Of a DNA stretch of 52,801 nt, positions 4,914 through 45,491 are shown in pieces (the first letter of the stretch is position 1; each line of letters starts with the position of its first letter). The translations under genes and the position numbers were made by a program. Origin of the DNA: a virus (taxonomy: Duplodnaviria; Caudoviricetes); IMG/VR virus record IMGVR_UViG_3300021600_000007, positions 1-52,801 of that record. One strand, 5' to 3'. The notes below the pieces were generated by a model. The model saw nothing but the letters and a program-made list of their open reading frames with translations. It made no database searches and was not told the DNA's origin.

Positions 4914-7133
4914 TTATTTTAAAACATTCAAACTACCTGATAATACTTTTCGATAGTCAGTCTTTAATGCTTTGAGTTCTACATTCCATGTATAAATTCC
5001 GATTGGTACCATTCGATTATTAAACGTTCCATCCCATCCCTCTTCAATATCATGAGATTCCCATATAATTTCACCCCATCTATTAAATAATGTCATCTTG
5101 TATCCGTAAATGTCAAACCCTGAAGTTACTATAGGTAACCATGTATTGTTATGTTCATCACCATCAGGAGTAAACGAGTTTGGAATATATAAAATGTCTT
5201 GAGGACATTGGATTATGGTTATTACTGTTTCTTGTTGTGGTGATGCACATTCATTAACATAATTCACAACAGATAATGTAAACATTCCAAATTCATTCCA
5301 ACTTGTATTAAATGTTTCAGTTTGTGTTGTATTGTTTAATAATGTCCATTCGTTATATCCACCAGGAACTGTTGAAACAATACTATATATACTTGGTATT
5401 GAATCTCCATCACATAGTTCAAAGAAATCGTTGTATGGAGTTATTTGAGAGATTGTTGGTCTTTCATAAACAATGATGTTTGTTGTTGTATCAAAGATAC
5501 ATCCACTTTGAATATATGTGTATGTAATATTATTGTTTAATGTATCCGCATTGGATGGGTAGAAATCATTTCCTGTAATTCCTGTACCATTAAACACTCC
5601 TCCGATTGGTGTTGCGCTTAATGTGGTAAATTCATCGTTGGAACAAAATGGTCCAATAGGTGTTATAACGGGAATTACATTAAAGATTGTAATGTCGAAC
5701 GATACAGGTACACTTATACATCCATTTGGACTTACGGCAACCATGTCAACCGCATTTGGAATGAACCCTGCAGGAAACCCTGACCAATCAACAACGATTG
5801 AATCTGTTCCTTGACCTGAAACAATATTACCAACTGACATCCATTGATATGTGTATCCAATACCTAAATCAGTTGTGGTATATACTATATTTGTTGATTC
5901 ATAACATACCGTATCTGAAGCGATGATTGGGTTTGCAATTACAGGTAATGGATTAACTAATGTTGCTCCACCTGAAACGGTACATCCTGCGGCATCGACA
6001 ACGGTGAATGAATATGCTCCCGCACATAAATTATTTATTGTGAACGATGGTAATTGACCATTCCAAGAAATGGTGATAACACCTGTTCCTCCAATTGATA
6101 TTACATTAATTGCGCCATCACAACTACCTGTACAATTTGGATTGAATGTTGTTACAATTGGTGGTGGTAAATTTGGTGGACCTGGTGCAACAAAAACCGT
6201 ATCAGGTCCTAAGTTACCCGTATTTAAATTACAGGATGTCCATCCCGCATTACATGTTGGGTATACAAAATGACAAGTATAGTTTGTTCCTCCTGCAGGT
6301 GGTGTAACCGTAATGGTTGGTCCCGTTCCTATTGGAGTTGAGTTACCTACCTGATACCAAGTTAACGTTGGAGTAACTACAGGACCGCTTGGTGTCCATC
6401 TGTAAGCATCATTGTTTGCCGTCCAAGCAGTTGAGTTTCTACCTGCAACAGCAATACCAATAGTTCCACCTAAATTATGTATCCCTTGTGTTGATGTACC
6501 TCCTTGCCATTGTAAACACGCAGGTTTACTTTGAATGTAACTCTCAATATTGTTGGATGATTCGTATATTACAATATGAAAAGTTCCTTGATTACCTGTA
6601 CAAGAAAACATAGGAACTCCAATCCAACTAACAACAAGTTTTCTACATGGTGCAACTCCTTGAACTTGATATTTGATTTGACCTCCAATACCAGGATGCC
6701 AATCTTGCCAAGGTCCCATGATACAATTCTTAGGCACTAACGGATTAGCCGTTGGGATTGGTTGAGATGTAAACGTTACGGGTTGTCCTCCACTGAATGA
6801 AATCCAACCATTAGACCCAACATAAAATTGAGTATAGGTTGTACCAAAGAAACAGAAGTTAAACCCAATACTAAATGGTCCTTGTTGGGAATCATCTGTC
6901 ATAAACAAACTTGTCCCTGTGTTGGTTTGAGCAACGTACGGTATGTTAGTAACACCGTAGTTTGTTGTTTGATTTGGGTTTACACCACCTCCACCACATT
7001 GGGATAGGTTAGCGGTTAATGTTGTCGTACCAATACCACATGGAAGTAATTGGTCAGGTCCTAAATCAGGACAATACTGCGTATACCCCATAGACGTTAA
7101 TAGGGTTAAAAATAAAATAGTTAGTAATCTCAT
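4914..7133 (-). CDS. secreted beta-rich protein with gliding-motility-associated (T9SS type B) C-terminal domain
   Basis: signal peptide MRLLTILFLTLLTSMGYTQ; SprB/Ig-like Cys-Gly-Thr segments; C-terminal YIPNSFTPDGDEHNNTW...FNRWGE...GWDG signature. Confidence 0.85.
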   Translation of the reverse strand: MRLLTILFLTLLTSMGYTQYCPDLGPDQLLPCGIGTTTLTANLSQCGGGGVNPNQTTNYGVTNIPYVAQTNTGTSLFMTDDSQQGPFSIGFNFCFFGTTYTQFYVGSNGWISFSGGQPVTFTSQPIPTANPLVPKNCIMGPWQDWHPGIGGQIKYQVQGVAPCRKLVVSWIGVPMFSCTGNQGTFHIVIYESSNNIESYIQSKPACLQWQGGTSTQGIHNLGGTIGIAVAGRNSTAWTANNDAYRWTPSGPVVTPTLTWYQVGNSTPIGTGPTITVTPPAGGTNYTCHFVYPTCNAGWTSCNLNTGNLGPDTVFVAPGPPNLPPPIVTTFNPNCTGSCDGAINVISIGGTGVITISWNGQLPSFTINNLCAGAYSFTVVDAAGCTVSGGATLVNPLPVIANPIIASDTVCYESTNIVYTTTDLGIGYTYQWMSVGNIVSGQGTDSIVVDWSGFPAGFIPNAVDMVAVSPNGCISVPVSFDITIFNVIPVITPIGPFCSNDEFTTLSATPIGGVFNGTGITGNDFYPSNADTLNNNITYTYIQSGCIFDTTTNIIVYERPTISQITPYNDFFELCDGDSIPSIYSIVSTVPGGYNEWTLLNNTTQTETFNTSWNEFGMFTLSVVNYVNECASPQQETVITIIQCPQDILYIPNSFTPDGDEHNNTWLPIVTSGFDIYGYKMTLFNRWGEIIWESHDIEEGWDGTFNNRMVPIGIYTWNVELKALKTDYRKVLSGSLNVLK

Positions 7134-7264
7134 ATTGATAATTAGTTTAGTGTCCAATATATTAGACGTTAGTTCAACGTTAAAGTACGATGAATGAATA
7201 ATAATACTTATATTTTTATTATTCAACTATTTTCAACAATTAATAATTACTATCTTTATAACAT

Positions 7265-9742: not shown

Positions 9743-10603
9743 TTAAATTTTTTCACCTTTTTTAATAACACCGTCAATTCTATTTTTGTGGTGATAATCT
9801 TCACCGATGGTTTCTTTGATACTCTCTTTTATTGTTTGAACTACTTCTCGTCGTCTATGGTGAGGGTCGTTAAGAGTTGCTTTTACTCCATTTTGAATGA
9901 TATCATCCAATCTCTCATCACCATCCTCCCAATCACCATATTCGGTATGTTTCACACCATTATCAATAACCTCTTCAACATCAAATTGGTCTGACCAATC
10001 ATATTCTTTAGGTAGAATATCAGAATAAGTGTTTTTAATACCCTTTTGAATGATTTTTTCAACTGATTTGGTTAACTTCATATCATGACAACAGGTCTCT
10101 TTGATACCATTTTCGATAACATCTTCAATAACACAAGAACCATCAATTTGTAGAGAGCCGTTGGTTAATTTTACCCCATTTTCAATGGTGTTTTCAATAA
10201 AATAATCACGATTATTAGGTGCACCAAGTTTAGTATCTTTTACACCATTCTCTATGGCATCTTCAACCTTTGTACCTAAAAGTTGCGGTTCGTGCCAACT
10301 TGTGTACTTCACCCCATTTTGTATTATGTTTTCAACATCTTGCACGGGCATGTTTCCGAATTTGTTGATTTCCTTCACCCCATTTTGAATGGTGTCTTCA
10401 ACCCTTTCCTGAGAATTAAGACTTTTTGAATCCTCGGTGTGTTTCACCCCATTTTTAATGGTGTCTTCAACATCCTCCGACGACAAATATGGACCACTAC
10501 TGGTGTGCTTCACCCCATTTATAATGGTATCTTCAACAATGCCACCATATCTCCGGTGTAGGAGGTTGGTGTGTTTCACCTTATTTATAACATTATCCTC
10601 AAC
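9743..10603 (-). repeat. CRISPR-like in-frame array A (13 x 36-nt repeat, 12 spacers of 30/33/48 nt)
   Basis: repeat left ends on + strand at 10568,10502,10436,10367,10301,10232,10163,10094,10028,9944,9875,9809,9743; coding consensus GTTGAAGACACCATTCAAAATGGGGTGAAACACACC. Confidence 0.85.
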
Positions 10604-10822
10604 CCATTTGGTAATGTAGTGTTGATTTTCAACAACATCCATTGAAAGGTACATCATTAAGTCTTTAAAGAAATTATAGTTATACCATAGGGTACCGTCT
10701 TTTGTGAGTTCGATTACCCATTTTTTACTTTCCGTAAATATAAGCCATGTGGAGTCTTTGGTTTTATATGTATCGACTCCTTCGACGGCATCATTAATCA
10801 TTCTATTAACAACCTTCTCCAT
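9743..10822 (-). CDS. repeat protein A: conserved N-domain + 13 VEDTIxNGVKHT repeats with variable spacers
   Basis: 359 aa ORF, paralog of 12826-13887. Confidence 0.8.
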   Translation of the reverse strand: MEKVVNRMINDAVEGVDTYKTKDSTWLIFTESKKWVIELTKDGTLWYNYNFFKDLMMYLSMDVVENQHYITKWVEDNVINKVKHTNLLHRRYGGIVEDTIINGVKHTSSGPYLSSEDVEDTIKNGVKHTEDSKSLNSQERVEDTIQNGVKEINKFGNMPVQDVENIIQNGVKYTSWHEPQLLGTKVEDAIENGVKDTKLGAPNNRDYFIENTIENGVKLTNGSLQIDGSCVIEDVIENGIKETCCHDMKLTKSVEKIIQKGIKNTYSDILPKEYDWSDQFDVEEVIDNGVKHTEYGDWEDGDERLDDIIQNGVKATLNDPHHRRREVVQTIKESIKETIGEDYHHKNRIDGVIKKGEKI

Positions 10823-12825: not shown

Positions 12826-13887
12826 ATGAATGACAGATTAGAAAAAATATTGTTTATCATGTTTGATGAGTTAATCGAAGGTGTTGACCAATACAACCAT
12901 CAAGGTAGTTTATGGTTGATATTAACCGATGAAAGAAAATGGATTCTTGAGTTCACGAAAACGAAAACTTTATGGTACAACTATACCATATTCAAAGAAA
13001 GGATGAGTTTTGCAGCCATGGATTGTGTTGAAAATAAAGAGTATATAACCAAATGGTTTGAAAGTAGATTTTTGAATAAACCAAAGGCTCAGGACACTTG
13101 GTTTAAACGTAGTGATACGTCAAATCAAATTGAAGACACCATTCAAAATGGGGTGAAACACACCAACCAAGGAATTTTAAACATCATGGAGGCTGTTGAA
13201 GACACCATTCAAAATGGGGTGAGACACACCAGTAGTGGTCCATATTTGTCGTCGGAGGATGTTGAATACACCATTCAAAATGGGGTGAAACATACCGTTC
13301 CAGATGCATCAACAATCGGATATGCGGTTGAAGACGCCATTCAAAATGGGGTAAAACACACTCAACAACAACATAAACGTTCGAAGTTCACGATTGAAGA
13401 CACCATTCAAAATGGGGTAAAGAAAACCGATTTTAATATGTATCGTGACAACAATGCCGTTGAAGACACCATTCAAAATGGAGTGAAGGACACCCTCCTT
13501 TGGTTGAATACCAGAACTACTGTAGTTGAAGGAGCGATTCAAAATGGTGTGAAACAAACAAAACGTAGTTATGAAGGTTCAAGAAAACAGAGAACAAATT
13601 ACGTCATTGAAAATGGGGTAAGACATACAATGTGGAGTAACGATGATGACGATGTTGAAGATGCCATTGAAAATGGGGTGAAACTCACCTCTTGTGCAAA
13701 TTCAAACACAGATTCAAAAATTGAAGAAACAATTGAGAATGGTGTGAAACTAACCTTAGGTGAACGGATGAATCGGGATTATTCTGTTAAAGATATCGTT
13801 GAAAATGGGGTAAAGGATATTCGAAGTTATTGTGATAGGGATAAAAAAATAATTGAGGGTATCACTAAAAATGGAGTTAAGAACTAA
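12826..13887 (+). CDS. repeat protein B: conserved N-domain + 12 VEDTIQNGVKHT repeats with variable spacers
   Basis: 353 aa ORF, paralog of 9743-10822 (shared EGVD.Y....WLI.T...KW..E.TK..TLWYNY..FK...YITKW). Confidence 0.8.
   Translation: MNDRLEKILFIMFDELIEGVDQYNHQGSLWLILTDERKWILEFTKTKTLWYNYTIFKERMSFAAMDCVENKEYITKWFESRFLNKPKAQDTWFKRSDTSNQIEDTIQNGVKHTNQGILNIMEAVEDTIQNGVRHTSSGPYLSSEDVEYTIQNGVKHTVPDASTIGYAVEDAIQNGVKHTQQQHKRSKFTIEDTIQNGVKKTDFNMYRDNNAVEDTIQNGVKDTLLWLNTRTTVVEGAIQNGVKQTKRSYEGSRKQRTNYVIENGVRHTMWSNDDDDVEDAIENGVKLTSCANSNTDSKIEETIENGVKLTLGERMNRDYSVKDIVENGVKDIRSYCDRDKKIIEGITKNGVKN
13129..13887 (+). repeat. CRISPR-like in-frame array B (12 x 36-nt repeat, 11 spacers: nine 30 nt, one 33, one 24)
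   Basis: repeat starts 13129,13195,13261,13327,13393,13459,13525,13594,13654,13720,13786,13852. Confidence 0.88.
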
Positions 13888-13910: not shown

Positions 13911-14588
13911 ATGATAGACAATTTAGAAATAATCAAACCACTTTTGAACTTCACTGATGCAGGTGACTTCTACATGCTTTATGTGTTCAAAAGAAAGAAA
14001 GACCAACCTGAAGATGAAAAAGACAATCATCAATCTGTAAGGACTATTAAGACCTATTGTATTGAAAGTATTGACCACCTTGAACGTAGATATGATGAGA
14101 TTAAACAACTTTGTGAGATGTTTAAGGCTCGTGCTTATATCCATGTCCAAAAACAAAATCACTTTGATGTTTCATTAAATATGATGGTTGAGTTGGCACA
14201 AAGAATTCAAAGCGGACAACACAATCAAAAAGGTTTATTTGATTCAGTTGTTGGTCAAATAAAAACCACAGAGAAAAGATGGATTGTTGATGTTGACATG
14301 AAAGATGAGGACGCATTAATGAAAATTATGAAACTCATTAATAATGGTTGCAAACCGTTGGATGTAGTGAATGAAACTCATTTACATAAGTCTGATGGTT
14401 CTGTGGAAGTGACTTATGATTATGACCCAAAAGTAATTGAGGTTATTCCAACTAAAAGTGGATATCATTTAATCACTAAACGATTTGATGTTATGACCTT
14501 TAACAAGATTATGTCTTTACAAGGTGATGTACCAGAAATACAAAAGAAGAACCCAACTTTATTATTTTACCCCAACTCTTTAGATTAA
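13911..14588 (+). CDS. conserved phage protein, possible AEP (primase-polymerase)-like fold
   Basis: WIVDVD (DxD) and PTKSGYHL motifs; TATCTTTG promoter. Confidence 0.5.
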   Translation: MIDNLEIIKPLLNFTDAGDFYMLYVFKRKKDQPEDEKDNHQSVRTIKTYCIESIDHLERRYDEIKQLCEMFKARAYIHVQKQNHFDVSLNMMVELAQRIQSGQHNQKGLFDSVVGQIKTTEKRWIVDVDMKDEDALMKIMKLINNGCKPLDVVNETHLHKSDGSVEVTYDYDPKVIEVIPTKSGYHLITKRFDVMTFNKIMSLQGDVPEIQKKNPTLLFYPNSLD

Positions 14589-14591
14589 GAT

Positions 14592-14951
14592 ATGAAAATT
14601 AATAGAGAAGAGGTTTATAATAAATGTGTCGGACATTGTGCGTATTGTGGTAATGATATTACAATAAAACAAATGCAAATCGACCATAAAGAACCTTTAT
14701 TTAGAAATCATACAGATAAACAATTGGAACACTATAAAAGGGAAAGAGGTACCAATGATATGGATAACCTCTTACCTTCTTGTGGAAGATGTAATAAATG
14801 GAAGAGTACATTCACTGTTGAGGCATTCAGAAAGATTGTAGGAACGTCTTTAGTTAGGTTAGAACGAGACACACCAAACTATAGGTTGGCTCGAGATTTT
14901 GGATTACTAACTGAAAATAATATTGATGTTGTATTTTATTTCGAGAGATAA
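14592..14951 (+). CDS. HNH endonuclease
   Basis: CAYCG..QIDHKEP..NLLPSCGRCNKWK. Confidence 0.9.
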   Translation: MKINREEVYNKCVGHCAYCGNDITIKQMQIDHKEPLFRNHTDKQLEHYKRERGTNDMDNLLPSCGRCNKWKSTFTVEAFRKIVGTSLVRLERDTPNYRLARDFGLLTENNIDVVFYFER

Positions 14952-25695: not shown

Positions 25696-26600
25696 CTTGG
25701 CTTCAGGTTGAGAATACACCTTCTTACGAGAGACTTTACAGGAGATTATTGTTTACTCCGATTTCCACTTCCTTTTGAGAAGTACCTCTCAGTCACGGTC
25801 AATTAGATTAACCAATCCTTGAGTCGTAATCTACTCTGTTTTTACTCGTTGCTCTTCAAGGTTGCCACCCTGATTATGTCTTGCGGACTTAGAGAACTTT
25901 CACAACAATCGTATTAGGCTTGGGACCTTTTACGGCCATGAACATCTCATGACTATGTAGTGACCTGTCAATCACGACTGGCGAACGCTTTTCCTTGTAT
26001 CTTTTAGTTGTTAAACCTTAATTAACAAAGTTTGCGGTTGTGGATGATGAAAGTAGCGGTTCGCCGACCAAGCCATGTTATCTTTTGAACAACACGATAC
26101 TTAACTACTCTCTGAAATGTCCCCATCTCCATACTTCAAGTTTGTTTCATCTTAAATCTCTTGGTAGAGATTTTAAGAAGGAATCACCAGCACCACCTGT
26201 ATGACCTCTTACCTTTCGGTTTTAAACCCACTCTTGTAATGAATCACGCAATAGTATGGTAGGATAACCATATGTCTTACAATAATTCTACGAGTTATTC
26301 TTATTGATGTTCCCACCTCAACCAAACGACCCACATCGCTTGGTCATCAAACCAGTTTCCCTACAGTGTCACCCTCGGTACTCAAGGTCTAACGATATCT
26401 CGCTTGTCTACTCGAGCTCCCTTTCGGAAGCCGCAAACCACTTAACCAAATGATTCACTTTATACCACTTTCATGGTTTATTTTATGGACTATAGACCGC
26501 CCAATATCTTTATCAGATTAAATGTCTCATAATCAACCCGAAGGTCTTATAATCAACTACTGAACGGATAATATCTTTAATTCAAAGAACGTTTTCTTAA
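25696..26600 (-). ncRNA. large (~900 nt) structured ncRNA, GOLLD-like
   Basis: no ORF >=60 aa in any frame, higher GC than flanks, several GNRA-capped hairpins, own promoter and terminator, adjacent to tRNA; family assignment inferred from size, context and remembered motifs. Confidence 0.7.
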
Positions 26601-26640: not shown

Positions 26641-26667
26641 TCTTTTGTAAACTTTTTTTTTGTTTAG

Positions 26668-26739
26668 TTGCGGGGGAAGGATTCGAACCTCCGACCTACG
26701 GGTTATGAGCCCGTCAAGCTACCACTGCTCTACCCCACG
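26668..26739 (-). tRNA. tRNA-Met (CAT), initiator type
   Basis: cloverleaf CGTGGGG..CTCATAA..GGTTCGAATCC..CCCCGCAA; C1:A72 mismatch and GGG/CCC anticodon stem; CCA not encoded. Confidence 0.93.
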
Positions 26740-30660: not shown

Positions 30661-31512
30661 TTATTTAAATTCCATTTCAATTTGTTTATTCTTATCTATA
30701 AAATGTTGGACTCTTTCTTGAGCAACTTTATTATAATTTTCACTTAATTCTATTCCAATCCATCTTCTACCACTAATCTCTGCAGCAACCATACTTGTTC
30801 CACTACCACAGAATGGGTCAAGGACAACATCATTCTTATATGTAAGAATCTTAATAGCTTTCATTGGAATATCCATTGAGAAAGTTGCTTTAGTTTGTTG
30901 TCTTGTATCGGCAAAATATTCCCACTGACCATAAACCAAAGACATAAATTCTTTTTTGTCCTCATCTTGATAAACGGCTTTAGTTTTTACGGTACCATCT
31001 TCTTGTTCTAAGTCAACCATCTCAGATTTCCATTGTGGTTCACCTTTAATTTTTTTGATACGGTCTTTCTTGTAAGCCAAGATAACACATTCCTTTGGGT
31101 TGTATATGTAAGGACTTGATGGACTCATCCATGAACCCCAAGCTGTGGTCTTACTTCTGTGTGGTGAATTCTCATCAAGGTCAACAAGACCATAAAACTT
31201 AAACCCGACCTCTTTCATGATGGTCCAAAACTCTGACATGAACAATACTCGTCCACCTCTGTCCTGTACGTTTACTTCGTAAGGAATGTTTACCGCAATC
31301 CTTCCATCATCTTTTAATGTGTTGTAGGCTTCGGTTAACCATTGTCGTGAAAACTCCCAATAGTCCTCCATACTCATTCTGTCGTCATGACTATCGTAGT
31401 CAATTCCAACATTATATGGTGGTGATGTCACAACCAAATCAACACAACCCTCAGGTAATGTTTTCATTACCTCAATACAATCACCTTGTAATATTTTTCC
31501 CGTTTCTATCAT
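30661..31512 (-). CDS. DNA methyltransferase (N4-C/N6-A, beta class)
   Basis: VTSPPY followed by VLDPFCGSGT. Confidence 0.92.
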   Translation of the reverse strand: MIETGKILQGDCIEVMKTLPEGCVDLVVTSPPYNVGIDYDSHDDRMSMEDYWEFSRQWLTEAYNTLKDDGRIAVNIPYEVNVQDRGGRVLFMSEFWTIMKEVGFKFYGLVDLDENSPHRSKTTAWGSWMSPSSPYIYNPKECVILAYKKDRIKKIKGEPQWKSEMVDLEQEDGTVKTKAVYQDEDKKEFMSLVYGQWEYFADTRQQTKATFSMDIPMKAIKILTYKNDVVLDPFCGSGTSMVAAEISGRRWIGIELSENYNKVAQERVQHFIDKNKQIEMEFK

Positions 31513-31900: not shown

Positions 31901-33106
31901 TTATTTCCCATTTAAATTAAACTTTATTTCCTCAGGTTTTGTATTCGCCTTGGACTCCATCATCTCAGATGTTAATTCATATTCTTCATCATTTTGATAC
32001 TCATTGAGTAATTCTTCATTTGAAAGTGTGCCAAACTTTTCATTTAAATCACTAGTATTATAATCACTCATATTATTTTTCATGGTCATAAGTTCTTCCG
32101 CAAATTTTAAACTATCCAAAATTACTTTTGTAACTCTATATGGGTCAGCGTTTGAACCTGGTCTTCTATCTTCCAAATATCCTGTCCAAGATGATGCCGT
32201 AGATATAGGAACTCTAATTGACGCTCCTCTGTCAGCAATACCCCAAGAGAATTTATCCATTGATTGTGTTTCGTTTTTACCAGTCAATCTGTATTCATTA
32301 CCAGAACCATAATTTTTAATATGAACATCATGTCTTGATTCAAATGCATTGAAAATAGATTTGAAGTACTCTTCACCACCTTCAGTTCTCATTCTTTCAT
32401 TGGAGAAGTTGCAGTGCATTCCTGAACCATTCCAATCGCCATGTCTTATTGGTTTTGGATTCAAATCAATATTTAAATTATAATACTCAGCAACTTTGTA
32501 TAACAAATAACGAGACATCCACAAATCATCAGATGCTTTAATCGCTCCTTTAGAGAATAGTTGGTATTCCCATTGACCTAACAAAACTTCAGCATTTACA
32601 CCAGTAATGTCTAATCCAGCATTTAAACATAGTTGTAAGTGCATGTCAACAAATTCTCTTTCTGACACATTTTTTGTACCTACACCACAATAATATTCTC
32701 CTTGATGTTTAGGAAATCCTTTTTCAGGAAATCCAGCGATATTACCGTCTTTGGTTTTTAGAACATATTCTTGTTCAAATCCAAACCATATAGAATCATC
32801 ATCTAAACCTATTTCAGCTCTTAAATTAGATTTGTGTTCATTCCCAGTCATTGGGTCCATTACCTCGCACAAAACATAGTTAGTTGCATATTGACTAATA
32901 TCAAATGACGGATAAAGTCTTACAGGTCGGAGAATACAATCTGAAAAATTACCTTCAGCTTGTTTAGTAGATGAACCATCAAACGACCATAATGGTAAGT
33001 CATCCAATCCAAATTCCATTGGTAAATCAAGGATTTTAATTTTACTTCTTAAATTTGGTTCGGGACTGTATCCATCTAACCAAATATATTCTAATTTAGT
33101 TTTCAT
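31901..33106 (-). CDS. glnII: glutamine synthetase type II
   Basis: EYIWLDG..LRSK, W.FDGSST.QA, GFEQEY, YYCGVG, NAEV..GQWE, PKP..GDWNGSG.H, RGASIR, EDRRP.SN.DPY. Confidence 0.92.
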   Translation of the reverse strand: MKTKLEYIWLDGYSPEPNLRSKIKILDLPMEFGLDDLPLWSFDGSSTKQAEGNFSDCILRPVRLYPSFDISQYATNYVLCEVMDPMTGNEHKSNLRAEIGLDDDSIWFGFEQEYVLKTKDGNIAGFPEKGFPKHQGEYYCGVGTKNVSEREFVDMHLQLCLNAGLDITGVNAEVLLGQWEYQLFSKGAIKASDDLWMSRYLLYKVAEYYNLNIDLNPKPIRHGDWNGSGMHCNFSNERMRTEGGEEYFKSIFNAFESRHDVHIKNYGSGNEYRLTGKNETQSMDKFSWGIADRGASIRVPISTASSWTGYLEDRRPGSNADPYRVTKVILDSLKFAEELMTMKNNMSDYNTSDLNEKFGTLSNEELLNEYQNDEEYELTSEMMESKANTKPEEIKFNLNGK

Positions 33107-43347: not shown

Positions 43348-44187
43348 TCAATAATTCAAGATTAACAACTCTTCCCCCATATTTTGTTTTGTTCCCTTCT
43401 TAGCTGCAGCCGCTTTAGCAAACTCTTTCTTCTCCCAACGGTACTGTCCTTCAGGAAACCACTCGTGTAATAACTCAAAATCGTAATAGGATAAACTGAA
43501 TTTACCTTGAACATTATGTAAGACATTTGCAAGTCTTTCATGGTCTTTTCTGTCAAAGTCATGGTTACTATAATAGTTTTCAGTTTTCCAGTATGGTGGG
43601 TCTAAATAGATGTAGGTTGTTGGAGAATCATACTTTTTAATAACATCAGCAAAATCCATATTCTCAACCTCAGTGATTTTTAGGAAATGTTCTACCCAAT
43701 CAGGTTTAGATAACTTATCTCTAAATGTAAGGTACTTTGATTTGTATTTACCTTTTAAGTCAATAAATGAACTTGTTTCAGGTTTACTACCACTGAATAC
43801 CTGTGTTAAGACATAGGCATATTTGGCGGCGATTTCATAATTTTCAGGTTTTAAGCTTAAATCTTTATCAAAAATTTCAGCCTGAAAGCTTATAAACTGT
43901 TCTTTATATATAGATGGTGTAATTTCTTCACCAAATTGTTGACATGGGATTGCATTGATTGATTCTAATAATCTTTCAGGATTCTTAATACATTGAAATA
44001 AATTGTAGTTAAGTGGGTTGAAGTCATTATAAACAACTTTCTTAAGATTTGGGAATTGTTTTAAGTCCATGTTGAAGAAACACCAAAACATCCCTCCAAA
44101 TGTTTCGACATATGTTTCAATGTCTTTATCATAGAAAGGGACAATCCACTTTCCAATTTTACTTTTACCTCCAATGTATGATAGCAT
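43348..44187 (-). CDS. Dam-like (D12 class) DNA adenine methyltransferase
   Basis: YIGGKS, YVETFGG, YND, YLDPPY. Confidence 0.9.
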   Translation of the reverse strand: MLSYIGGKSKIGKWIVPFYDKDIETYVETFGGMFWCFFNMDLKQFPNLKKVVYNDFNPLNYNLFQCIKNPERLLESINAIPCQQFGEEITPSIYKEQFISFQAEIFDKDLSLKPENYEIAAKYAYVLTQVFSGSKPETSSFIDLKGKYKSKYLTFRDKLSKPDWVEHFLKITEVENMDFADVIKKYDSPTTYIYLDPPYWKTENYYSNHDFDRKDHERLANVLHNVQGKFSLSYYDFELLHEWFPEGQYRWEKKEFAKAAAAKKGTKQNMGEELLILNY

Positions 44188-44235
44188 ATTTTTACTTTTA
44201 TAAAAGTATAAGTAAAAAATACGAAAAGGCAAATT

Positions 44236-44422: not shown

Positions 44423-44569
44423 ATGTCAGAAACTGGTTGTAAAAAATGTAAACAAAAAGGTCCTAGTAATTTTCAAATAGGTTCAATAATTTTAGGTGTC
44501 TATATTATAGTGACATCAATATACGGAACGATTGAATTTGTTAAAGATATTGTAGGATATTTTAAATAG
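44423..44569 (+). CDS. small CxxC + TM protein (not in ORF track)
   Basis: MSETGCKKCKQK..TM helix. Confidence 0.5.
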   Translation: MSETGCKKCKQKGPSNFQIGSIILGVYIIVTSIYGTIEFVKDIVGYFK

Positions 44570-45491
44570 GTCTGTTAAATTTAACATTTAATTTAACATA
44601 CATATCTCCGCTATTATATCCCTTACCCTTTAATCTTAAAGGTTTAGAGCTATCAAATATTGGTAAAGCGTTCATTACCAAATCACCATTTGGATGTGGA
44701 ATATTAAATTTATCCTGTTGGATTTGTTCTAAATCTAAGAATAGATTATAAATCAAATCATTATTAATTTTTTCATAACCATCTTGGTTAACCATTTCAA
44801 TTTGAATAACTAAATCACCGTATTCACCGTTTCTAAAATCACCTAAATTACCAACTTTAAGGTATTGTCCATTGTCAACCCCAATTGGTAGTTTAACTGT
44901 AACCTCATGATTTTGTGGTTTAACCCCTTTACCATCACAATGATAACATCTATGTGTTAAAGTATGTCCTCGACCTGCACAAGTGCCACAAGCGGTTCTA
45001 ATTTGTTGAACCATGAATCCTGTACCAAATGTTTTTATTTGGAATCCAGCTCCTCCACAAGTCCCACAAGGTTGTTGTTCTCCACCACTACCAGAACAAA
45101 TGTTACAATGATTGTCTTTTATATAGTTAATCACCTTATCAACTCCTTTAAACGATTCAATCGGATTAACCTGAACTTTGATTATTTTATCGGGTGCAGA
45201 TTTTCTTCTTTGATTGAATGGATTTTGTTGTTGTCCAAACATTTGATTAAAAATCTCCTCATAAGACATTCCGCCATTACCAGCAAATGGATTGTTTAAG
45301 TTGTTATTGTATTGAGCTCGTTTTGCCTCATCACCGATTATACCATATGCAACCGTAATCTCTTTAAATTTCTCAGCACCTTCAGGATTTACATCAGGAT
45401 GGTACTGTTTACTTAATTTTCTGTAAGCCTTTTTGATTTCATCTTGTGTAGCATCTTTACTTACACCTAAAATTTCGTAATAATTATTCAT
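44562..45491 (-). CDS. dnaJ: DnaJ chaperone
   Basis: J domain with HPD, four CxxCxGxG, C-terminal domain. Confidence 0.92.
   Translation of the reverse strand: MNNYYEILGVSKDATQDEIKKAYRKLSKQYHPDVNPEGAEKFKEITVAYGIIGDEAKRAQYNNNLNNPFAGNGGMSYEEIFNQMFGQQQNPFNQRRKSAPDKIIKVQVNPIESFKGVDKVINYIKDNHCNICSGSGGEQQPCGTCGGAGFQIKTFGTGFMVQQIRTACGTCAGRGHTLTHRCYHCDGKGVKPQNHEVTVKLPIGVDNGQYLKVGNLGDFRNGEYGDLVIQIEMVNQDGYEKINNDLIYNLFLDLEQIQQDKFNIPHPNGDLVMNALPIFDSSKPLRLKGKGYNSGDMYVKLNVKFNRPI

Follow-up and report, generated by a model that had tools for sequence, protein, structure and literature searches.

Gene B of the virus record IMGVR_UViG_3300021600_000007 (Duplodnaviria; Caudoviricetes), whose whole stretch of 52,801 nucleotides (nt) is called the window here, holds an array of repeats and spacers that an earlier note on this DNA had compared to CRISPR arrays (arrays of short palindromic repeats that are clustered and regularly interspaced) of type VI-B, the Cas13b type. 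The array is almost certainly a protein-coding repeat family and not a CRISPR array. Gene B belongs to an undescribed phage protein family that combines a constant helical framework with exchangeable cassettes of 10 residues, and our preferred and reasonably probable explanation is that it encodes a new helix-loop tandem-repeat protein of large Bacteroidota phages that is diversified by recombination in the framework and may act as a modular binder. The features of gene B and of its paralog A are the following (amino acids are abbreviated aa).

12826..13887, + strand: gene B, a protein of 353 aa consisting of an N-domain and 12 framework/cassette units, from the listing of open reading frames (ORFs)
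12826..13128, + strand: N-terminal globular domain of gene B, aa 1-101, from invariant alignment columns
13129..13494, + strand: homogeneous zone of gene B, units 1-6, frameworks with 31-35/36 bases identical to the consensus
13231..13260, + strand: cassette 2 of gene B, SSGPYLSSED, matching a cassette of paralog A over 30/30 nt
13525..13884, + strand: degenerate zone of gene B, units 7-12, with 22-32 identical bases
9743..10822, - strand: paralog A ("array A"), which shares N-domain and framework motif with gene B and is 359 aa long, from the ORF listing
10472..10501, - strand: the copy in paralog A of the cassette common with gene B, 30/30 nt

The ORF listing and the mapping of the units bear out the layout reported in the earlier note, an N-domain of about 100 aa followed by 12 copies of a 36-nt repeat, with nine of 11 spacers exactly 30 nt long. 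The units start at positions 13129, 13195, 13261, 13327, 13393, 13459, 13525, 13594, 13654, 13720, 13786 and 13852, and the spacers between them measure 30 nt six times, then 33 and 24 nt, and again 30 nt three times. Measured against the 36-nt consensus of the earlier note, units 1-11 are identical at 35, 35, 34, 33, 31, 33, 29, 23, 32, 28 and 25 of 36 positions and unit 12 at 22/33, in agreement with its description of repeats 1-6 as near-identical (31-35/36) and of repeats 7-12 as decaying (22-32 identical bases). The frameworks of the homogeneous zone encode [VI]E[DY][TA]IQNGV[KR]xT and each is followed by an unrelated 30-nt cassette, the one after unit 6 (13495-13524) lying just outside the zone. 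The cassettes of the degenerate zone are 33, 24, 30, 30 and 30 nt long, and the protein terminates within its last framework unit, IEGITKNGVKN. The GC content is 0.41-0.42 in the homogeneous zone compared to 0.28-0.31 in the flanks. As the earlier note had also observed, the spacers are mutually unrelated: when compared with each other and with the rest of the window their best matches comprise 16-21 identical bases, the level of shuffled spacers, with cassette 2 as the sole exception. Because the spacers differ from one another, Tandem Repeats Finder detects only the first 2.5 copies, with a period of 66. All spacers are free of stop codons and multiples of three within the gene B ORF, and synonymous changes occur within the repeat (Gly codons GGG 8, GGT 2 and GGA 1; Val codons GTG 7 and GTA 4), both as stated before. 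Alignment columns of the W/Y-rich core of the N-domain show S28, W30, W39, E42, T44, L49, W50, N52 and Y53 to be conserved.

The repeat has 479 nucleotide matches in the window and 126 fetched viral loci, and every one of them sits in a stop-free stretch of the frame that reads VEDTIQNGVK. The open stretches around these matches are at least 150 aa long in 476/479 cases (median 439 aa; the three shorter ones 101, 142 and 142 aa), compared to medians of 16-61 aa for the other five frames, and the gene B region is open only in its own frame, the remaining five being closed. On the antisense of the array, positions 13309-13557 (- strand) are open for 82 aa with a repeated PILNGVFN. This frame stays open because the framework is partly palindromic, and it is regarded as a by-product since its median open stretch across the loci is only 61 aa.

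A word-seeded search of 5.8 billion proteins, covering homologs of 194-618 aa, identified 2099 homologs of gene B at E<=1e-3 among 8000 candidates scored. The 120 matches listed are 33-66% identical to gene B and carry the N-domain anchor in 120/120 cases, while thirteen longer homologs of 620-784 aa merely carry more units. The N-domain alone retrieved 273 matches at E<=1e-3 from 1.84 billion cluster representatives (phmmer). Among the 150 of these that were listed the alignment starts inside the first 50 residues, and the repeat motif is present in 119/125 newly listed N-domain matches of at least 150 aa. Family members carry this same N-domain along with anything from 5 to about 30 units. 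In viral sequences, a degenerate 26-nt core of the repeat was detected in at least 117 contigs, which range up to 281 kb. No match to this core was found among 185,579 bacterial and archaeal species, each represented by one genome, and a profile-guided protein scan of these species genomes yielded 85 candidate stretches, none of which was confirmed.

For both gene B and paralog A, Pfam and NCBIfam contained nothing above curated cut-offs, while PHROGs and PADLOC gave weak matches or none, the PHROG matches being of unknown function. The N-domain profile had 0 matches in the PDB at E<=10 and no Pfam relative. The motif strings TIQNGVK, IQNGVKHT and EDTIQNG returned no match in the literature searched, and nothing relevant on hypervariable tandem repeats in jumbo phages was found there. 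At their source homologs are named peroxiredoxin, dodecin, PurS or transcriptional regulator; these labels disagree with one another, go back to helix-like matches that were summed, and were discarded. An assignment to Dodecin (PF07311) was likewise rejected: gene B scores 21.9 bits against a gathering cut-off of 22.5 and no single stretch passes, the match covers only profile positions 15-30 (a helix) of the ~64-residue domain, and homologs reach the cut-off only through summed repeats.

The cassettes are discrete peptides under purifying selection that come from a pool common to these phages. With a position matrix 1392 units were found in 122 proteins and 0 in shuffled proteins. Of the 1270 cassettes between those units, 753 have a length of exactly 10 aa and 166 of 11 aa, and a tail of longer ones reaches 26-34 aa. 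Cassette pairs of at least 60% identity numbered 6206, compared to 10 after shuffling. Eight of the ten gene B cassettes examined recur in 2-14 other proteins at differing unit indices; cassette DFNMYRDNNA, for example, belongs to unit 5 in gene B and to unit 1, 7 or 10 in other proteins. P0001 and P0002, the closest homologs of gene B, keep most of its C-terminal cassettes in order. There are thus orthologs whose spacer peptides can be aligned, which the earlier note had named among the marks of an ordinary tandem-repeat protein. The protein-level selection proposed there is supported by a ratio of non-synonymous to synonymous differences (pN/pS) of 0.30-0.33 over 192 cassette pairs that are at least 70% identical at the nucleotide level, a degree of identity reached by 0 pairs after codon shuffling. 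As a class the cassettes are nearly free of constraint: the entropy at each cassette position amounts to 3.85-4.18 bits (338 distinct 10-mers), and neither helical nor strand periodicity was found in the cassettes beyond that of shuffles. Disorder-promoting residues make up 53% of cassette residues; W, F, Y, I, L and C occur at ordinary frequencies.

The framework consensus comprises the 12 residues VEDTIQNGVKHT, each 66-nt period encoding 22 residues. Judged from the residue pattern, the framework is predicted to have alpha-helical amphipathic periodicity and the cassettes to be near-random loops. The hydrophobic moment of the framework peaks at 90-100 degrees (0.59, compared to 0.10-0.29 at 160-180 degrees), with V1, T4/I5, G8/V9 and T12 on one face, and Pro is rare, with at most 1.2% at position 1 and no more than 0.4% over positions 2-13, and appears just outside. 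Sub-threshold matches in Pfam (Dodecin positions 15-30, HU-CCDC81) and in the PDB (a designed armadillo repeat) all fall on helices. Family-wide the framework decays from the N- to the C-terminus, retaining 8.6/10 consensus residues in the first fifth of units and 6.0 in the last.

Framework codons were counted in loci taken by peptide patterns, and the counts are unbiased for this reason. ACC was used for Thr-4 in 93/115 cases (window-wide usage 12%), GGG for Gly-8 in 108/168 (8%) and CAC for His-11 in 43/50 (34%). Similarly, a comparison of frameworks with cassettes and N-domains of the same 16 genes gave 67% vs 27-34% for ACC and 63% vs 10-24% for GGG. The fraction of identical residues with differing codons remained steady at 0.29-0.33 in the framework at any divergence and rose from 0.01 to 0.55 in the N-domain. 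Synonymous differences (pS) among framework units amount to 0.35-0.5, which argues against a strictly conserved RNA element. Codon homogeneity together with the N-to-C decay of the motif points to concerted evolution of the N-proximal units by the recombination that moves cassettes.

Paralog A, whose array portion spans about 9746-10537, is 39% identical to gene B (BLASTP, E 2e-71), and the two N-domains are identical at 59% of nt. The frameworks flanking the cassette that A and B have in common are identical at 31/36 and 33/36 positions, while the adjoining cassettes are unrelated (5/30 and about 14/36 identical). The 30/30 cassette thereby shows a putative transfer between the paralogs with breakpoints in the repeats. 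Over the whole set of cassette pairs that are 90 to <100% identical (147 pairs), pS is 0.148 for the cassettes and 0.354 for the flanking frameworks. The flanks therefore do not have the history of the cassette, as expected if breakpoints lie within the framework repeats.

Genes whose N-domains are at least 93% identical display 5, 5 and 4 cassette architectures in three of the largest clusters, and one cluster of near-identical genes holds 13, 12, 3, 3 and 3 cassettes. Close relatives differ by gain, loss or replacement of single units, at the first position as well as in the interior, and by one duplication. This turnover is not polarised. Over 21 pairs of close relatives the share of matched cassettes by position fifth was 0.56, 0.46, 0.50, 0.63 and 0.61, and the first cassette was matched in 24/42 comparisons and the last in 25/42. 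The 5'-polarised gain of units suggested in the earlier note was accordingly not seen, the matched share being 0.46-0.63 across fifths. From its alternative proposal, a protein diversified by polarised insertion of 10-aa cassettes, the gain, loss and replacement of whole cassettes and the N-to-C decay of the framework stand, but the polarity of turnover does not. Contigs from other lake metagenomes cover the genes flanking the arrays at 95-99% likeness, join framework repeats inside the arrays across 30-36 foreign letters, and also join arrays A and B on opposite strands; these joints were taken at a minimum likeness of 90, and assembly, or related phages rather than this strain, may contribute to them. 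Taken together, the cassette mosaic is likely of recombinational origin.

The window is a 52.8-kb fragment estimated to be 18% complete; related virus records reach 281 kb at 96% completeness, and the sequencing runs holding the locus are lake and freshwater metagenomes. The 770-aa product of a phage ORF at 4914-7226 (- strand) has a PKD-like domain and carries at its C-terminus a type IX secretion sorting domain of the CHU_C kind (E 3.5e-12). This sorting domain points to Bacteroidota, and the host of the phage is therefore probably a Bacteroidota bacterium. The product of this ORF, encoded by the phage, is apparently exported by the type IX secretion system of the host. Downstream of gene B the window contains two genes that lie next to it and outside the array.

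13911-14588, + strand: phrog_14949 protein, 225 aa (E 2.8e-27)
14592-14951, + strand: HNH endonuclease

The first of these has no relative in Pfam, NCBIfam, PADLOC or PDB. Both genes also adjoin family genes in three other loci (L005, L006 and L010), and across the 127 loci (the 126 fetched ones and the window) the phrog_14949 family occurs in 42, mostly upstream on the same strand. One family ORF is present in 96 of the 127 loci, two in 28 and three in 2. Neighbouring family genes lie on the same strand and within 300 nt of each other in 31/32 pairs, the exception being the divergent A/B pair of this window. Immediately downstream on the same strand, 55/127 loci carry an ORF of ~102 aa (e.g. 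L050:2901-3260, - strand), which is absent from this window and has no Pfam or NCBIfam match; the median gap of 2 nt suggests a translationally coupled partner. Further frequent neighbours are thymidylate synthase (41/127 loci), GIY-YIG and HNH endonucleases, phosphoesterases and ClpP. A scan for promoters and terminators remained at chance level, and such a scan does not cover Bacteroidota promoters. Contigs of 121-293 nt from one metatranscriptome library of a lake (X19) match gene B at 12945-13095 and 13662-13785 as well as paralog A and neighbouring genes with 90-99% likeness; they are strandless and may stem from contaminating DNA, so that they demonstrate neither transcription nor its direction, and small RNAs would be invisible in them.

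A divergent branch of the family was found in the 190-kb virus record G003, which holds 11 copies of the N-domain. Its framework reads VERILQKEVKDT, and each ORF contains the N-domain with 2-5 units three times over, with acidic linkers between.

L132:656-2812: divergent-branch ORF
L133:508-1707: divergent-branch ORF
L133:1956-3029: divergent-branch ORF
L134:755-2677: divergent-branch ORF

One ORF of this record continues, uninterrupted by a stop codon, into a domain of 288 aa (phrog_36119), the stand-alone homologs of which match the PF01909 nucleotidyltransferase; the gene caller of the source had split the nucleotidyltransferase-like part off as a separate 260-aa protein, and the junction is an apparent one. 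Its being in frame favours a domain-like, adaptor or binding role of the module.

Several other features of the window were recorded. A full-length GOLLD RNA (RF02032) lies at 25705-26112 (- strand; 322.5 bits against a gathering cut-off of 150, E 1.2e-91, model positions 1-416), with a tRNA-Met (CAT) at 26667-26739 about 555 nt away on the same strand. Further genes, all on the - strand, encode a glutamine-synthetase-like protein (31901-33106), a full DnaJ (44562-45491) and two DNA methyltransferases of the N6_N4_Mtase (30661-31512) and D12 (43348-44232) classes.

In the explanation that we prefer, the virus is a large, uncultured phage of freshwater, and its 36-nt framework repeats would provide stretches of homology for recombination, which transfers cassettes from allele to allele and now and then from one paralog to another. 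This exchange would also keep the framework codons, rare ones included, homogeneous in the N-proximal part of the array, and the CRISPR-like 36+30 geometry would be a by-product of a 22-residue structural repeat. More tentatively, the gene B protein may be a cytoplasmic modular binding scaffold, either a helix-loop solenoid or an array displaying variable loops. We give this binding function somewhat less than an even chance; the location of the genes among auxiliary and nucleic-acid-processing genes points to a probable role in phage-host conflict. It is conceivable, if rather doubtful, that gene B represents a combinatorial display protein whose framework codons are kept alike as recombination sites while hundreds of 10-residue cassettes are reassorted population-wide. 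The accompanying idea that phage-specific sets of loops on a common scaffold bind or blunt fast-evolving host factors is to be held just as loosely.

Several observations weigh against this explanation or parts of it. The 479 matches of the frame test come from loci that were chosen by a nucleotide pattern. Exchange of cassettes between diverged paralogs was detected in only 1/16 pairs, namely A/B, which suggests that exchange takes place mostly between genomes. The rare-codon skew of the framework could reflect selection at the nucleic-acid level rather than homogenisation, and chi-square p-values for this skew are overstated because the units are not independent. With regard to structure, hydrophobic enrichment in the cassettes is weak (46% at position 5 and 38% at position 9), which is little for a solenoid core. 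The ESM Atlas has no model of gene B, feature matches of 0.76-0.77 being below the noise bar. Its model of P0002, which is 61% identical to gene B, has low confidence (predicted local distance difference test, pLDDT, 0.59; predicted template modelling score, pTM, 0.46) and no structural neighbour at TM >= 0.5; a regular solenoid is accordingly not established and partial disorder is possible.

The CRISPR reading was rejected on the grounds of the coding frame, the selected cassettes, the unpolarised turnover and the missing cas genes, protospacers and Rfam match. The earlier note was right that the window has no cas genes: the record, itself a fragment, contains no Cas1 (PF01867) and no ORF larger than 770 aa, PADLOC had no match among seven local proteins, and the 10 representatives scanned for the frequent clusters of neighbouring genes included no cas gene. 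The spacers, which the note had wished to see compared with phage genomes, had no protospacer by blastn in 50,697 phage records and none in the window apart from the match of cassette 2 to paralog A, a metagenome-wide protospacer search not having been made. The note had further proposed a dual-function locus, which codes for protein and whose antisense (or sense) RNA is in addition processed to imitate, or act as a decoy for, the CRISPR RNAs (crRNAs) of a host type VI-B system. The 36+30-nt geometry, the run of four U at the centre of the antisense repeat and its 3'-terminal CAAC do agree with type VI-B as described in 10.1101/092577, from which the VI-B repeat features used here were taken; the host is probably a Bacteroidota bacterium, and the rare-codon skew of the framework leaves room for a constraint on the nucleic acid. 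According to the same text, however, the VI-B direct repeat of 36 nt has complementary 5'-GUUG/CAAC-3' ends that form a stem, and a poly-U loop. The repeat of gene B ends in GUUG...CACC in sense and GGUG...CAAC in antisense orientation, so that its VI-B-like appearance holds for length, mid-repeat U run and antisense CAAC end but not for the complementary ends, which neither strand has. Moreover, the antisense repeat takes its 5' end from codon 11, and only 23% of units have His at this codon, compared to 38% with Glu. The internal hairpins CCAUU/AAUGG and CACC/GGUG reported earlier do exist, but the repeat folds no better than dinucleotide shuffles (z = 0.03 sense, -0.35 antisense), its minimum-energy fold lacks a terminal stem, and no compensatory changes in the proposed pairs were found among 111 distinct units. 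There was also no match of the array to Rfam CRISPR-DR families and none of the repeat to the cellular species genomes, repeats 7-12 are degenerate, and framework units differ at synonymous sites to the extent given above. A crRNA mimic at this locus is thus unsupported, and we consider it extremely improbable.

The remaining alternatives accept a coding array and assign it other roles. A disordered multivalent array, in which the amphipathic helices are short linear motifs that each bind one copy of an abundant host or phage partner and the cassettes are spacers of fixed length, would account for the low confidence of the language-model structure (pLDDT 0.59), the absence of a periodic hydrophobic pattern in cassettes rich in disorder-promoting residues (53%), and the framework being by far the most conserved element. 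Such linkers would, however, not be expected to be conserved as discrete selected peptides containing W, F, Y, I, L and C, and the proteins stop precisely in a framework unit, in the manner of capped repeats; we judge this role unlikely. A smaller probability still falls to a multi-core precursor with the N-domain as leader, the 12-aa framework as recognition or cleavage sequence and the 10-aa cassettes as released products. Such a protein would resemble the precursors of ribosomally synthesized and post-translationally modified peptides or polyprotein precursors, for example those of cyanobactins, in which hypervariable cassettes lie in a conserved background. Conserved flanks around hypervariable cores of near-fixed length (10 aa in 753/1270), differing sets of cassettes on near-identical N-domains and ClpP protease genes in 18/127 loci would all suit a precursor. 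Against it, the frequent neighbour families scanned (10 representatives) included no heterocyclase, macrocyclase, subtilisin-like protease or radical SAM protein, and the cassette ends have no enriched residue that could mark cleavage or modification. The C-terminal units are degenerate yet kept as orthologs, cassettes of 26-34 aa exist, and in the divergent relative the module occurs three times over and continues in frame into a nucleotidyltransferase-like domain, which fits a domain and not a leader.

Very improbable in our view is a virion ruler or scaffold related to tail tape-measure proteins, even though, within 50,697 phage records, the family matches nothing but tape-measure proteins, which come from five records of Enterococcus phages (27% identity, E 1e-6). 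Their 11-aa repeats [IV][WF]NG[IV][KR]N[TV] resemble IQNGVKHT, 22 is twice 11, and tape measures with 11-aa repeats marked by W/F have been described (PMC3271669). The period of the gene B family is nevertheless 22 and not 11, and it has no W/F marker. Its proteins are between 205 and about 784 aa long, and the number of cassettes varies from 3 to 13 among genes whose N-domains are 93% identical, a variability that is incompatible with a ruler. In addition, the copy number is 1-11 per genome, and the neighbours are metabolic or auxiliary genes (ThyA, ClpP, HNH) and not tail genes.

The coding reading removes a tempting false positive, namely a coding repeat that reproduces type VI-B geometry almost exactly in phages of the same phylum that carries Cas13b. 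A large family is newly brought to light, with more than 2,000 sequences and presence in at least 117 viral contigs and in none of the 185,579 cellular species genomes. Few phage proteins would be expected to vary as it does, by whole 10-residue cassettes from a common pool recombined at framework repeats. Should the cassettes prove to be binding loops, they would constitute a natural library for phage-host recognition or counter-defence in freshwater Bacteroidota and the protein a compact scaffold for loop display.

Compared to known systems, the array resembles type VI-B arrays in its 36-nt repeat, 30-nt spacers, 66-nt period, U run on one strand and Bacteroidota context (10.1101/092577). 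In contrast to these, the array of gene B lies wholly inside a conserved ORF, its "spacers" are selected peptides common to homologs, and its repeat is degenerate in half of the array, absent from the cellular genomes searched and devoid of complementary GUUG/CAAC ends or a significant fold, with no cas genes found. CRISPR finders count overlap with an ORF and similarity to tandem-repeat proteins against an array, as stated in 10.1101/2020.11.05.369512, and the gene B locus is a case of such a false CRISPR. It differs from others of this kind in that its spacers are mutually unrelated and as uniform in length as CRISPR spacers, a combination that coding repeats do not usually show.

Among repeat proteins, the FNIP/IP22 leucine-rich repeat (LRR) protein Crov588 (PDB 6nyr) of a giant virus likewise consists of viral 22-residue repeats, with a summed E of 5e-11 to the family profile and an alignment of VEDTIQNGVKHT with its VENVLPxxLTHL; E for single stretches is only 0.005 and 0.16. 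The large FNIP/IP22 (FGxxFN) repertoires are thought to bind many ligands (PMC9525666). The gene B family has the 22-residue period of this group, made up of a 12-aa framework and a 10-aa cassette (753/1270). The FGxxFN motif and Phe spine described in the same text, however, fall on the hypervariable cassette, where no conserved F, G or N was found at the corresponding positions, and Pfam FNIP or LRR models had no match on gene B at E<=1. The family is therefore not a member of FNIP/IP22. Repeats of siphophage tape measures, as portrayed in PMC3271669, are similar in having NG[VI][KR]xT after a hydrophobic residue, a varying repeat number and a phage origin, and they differ in that the gene B family has a period of 22 with one variable half, a short protein and an unstable number of units.

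A target of a diversity-generating retroelement was considered and rejected as well, since the record, as far as this fragment reaches, contains no reverse transcriptase (RVT_1) and variation takes place by whole cassettes and not by point changes. Lamprey variable lymphocyte receptors, antigenic-variation cassettes and cyanobactin cassettes all pair an invariant framework with variable cassettes that can be exchanged, and their conserved flanking DNA can serve for recombination. The gene B family differs from such cassette-based variable proteins in that no silent donor cassettes or dedicated enzyme were seen, and the exchange of its cassettes appears to be ordinary homologous recombination among phage genomes. 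Should the combinatorial display reading prove true, the family would amount to a counterpart, in phages, of variable receptors built from cassettes.

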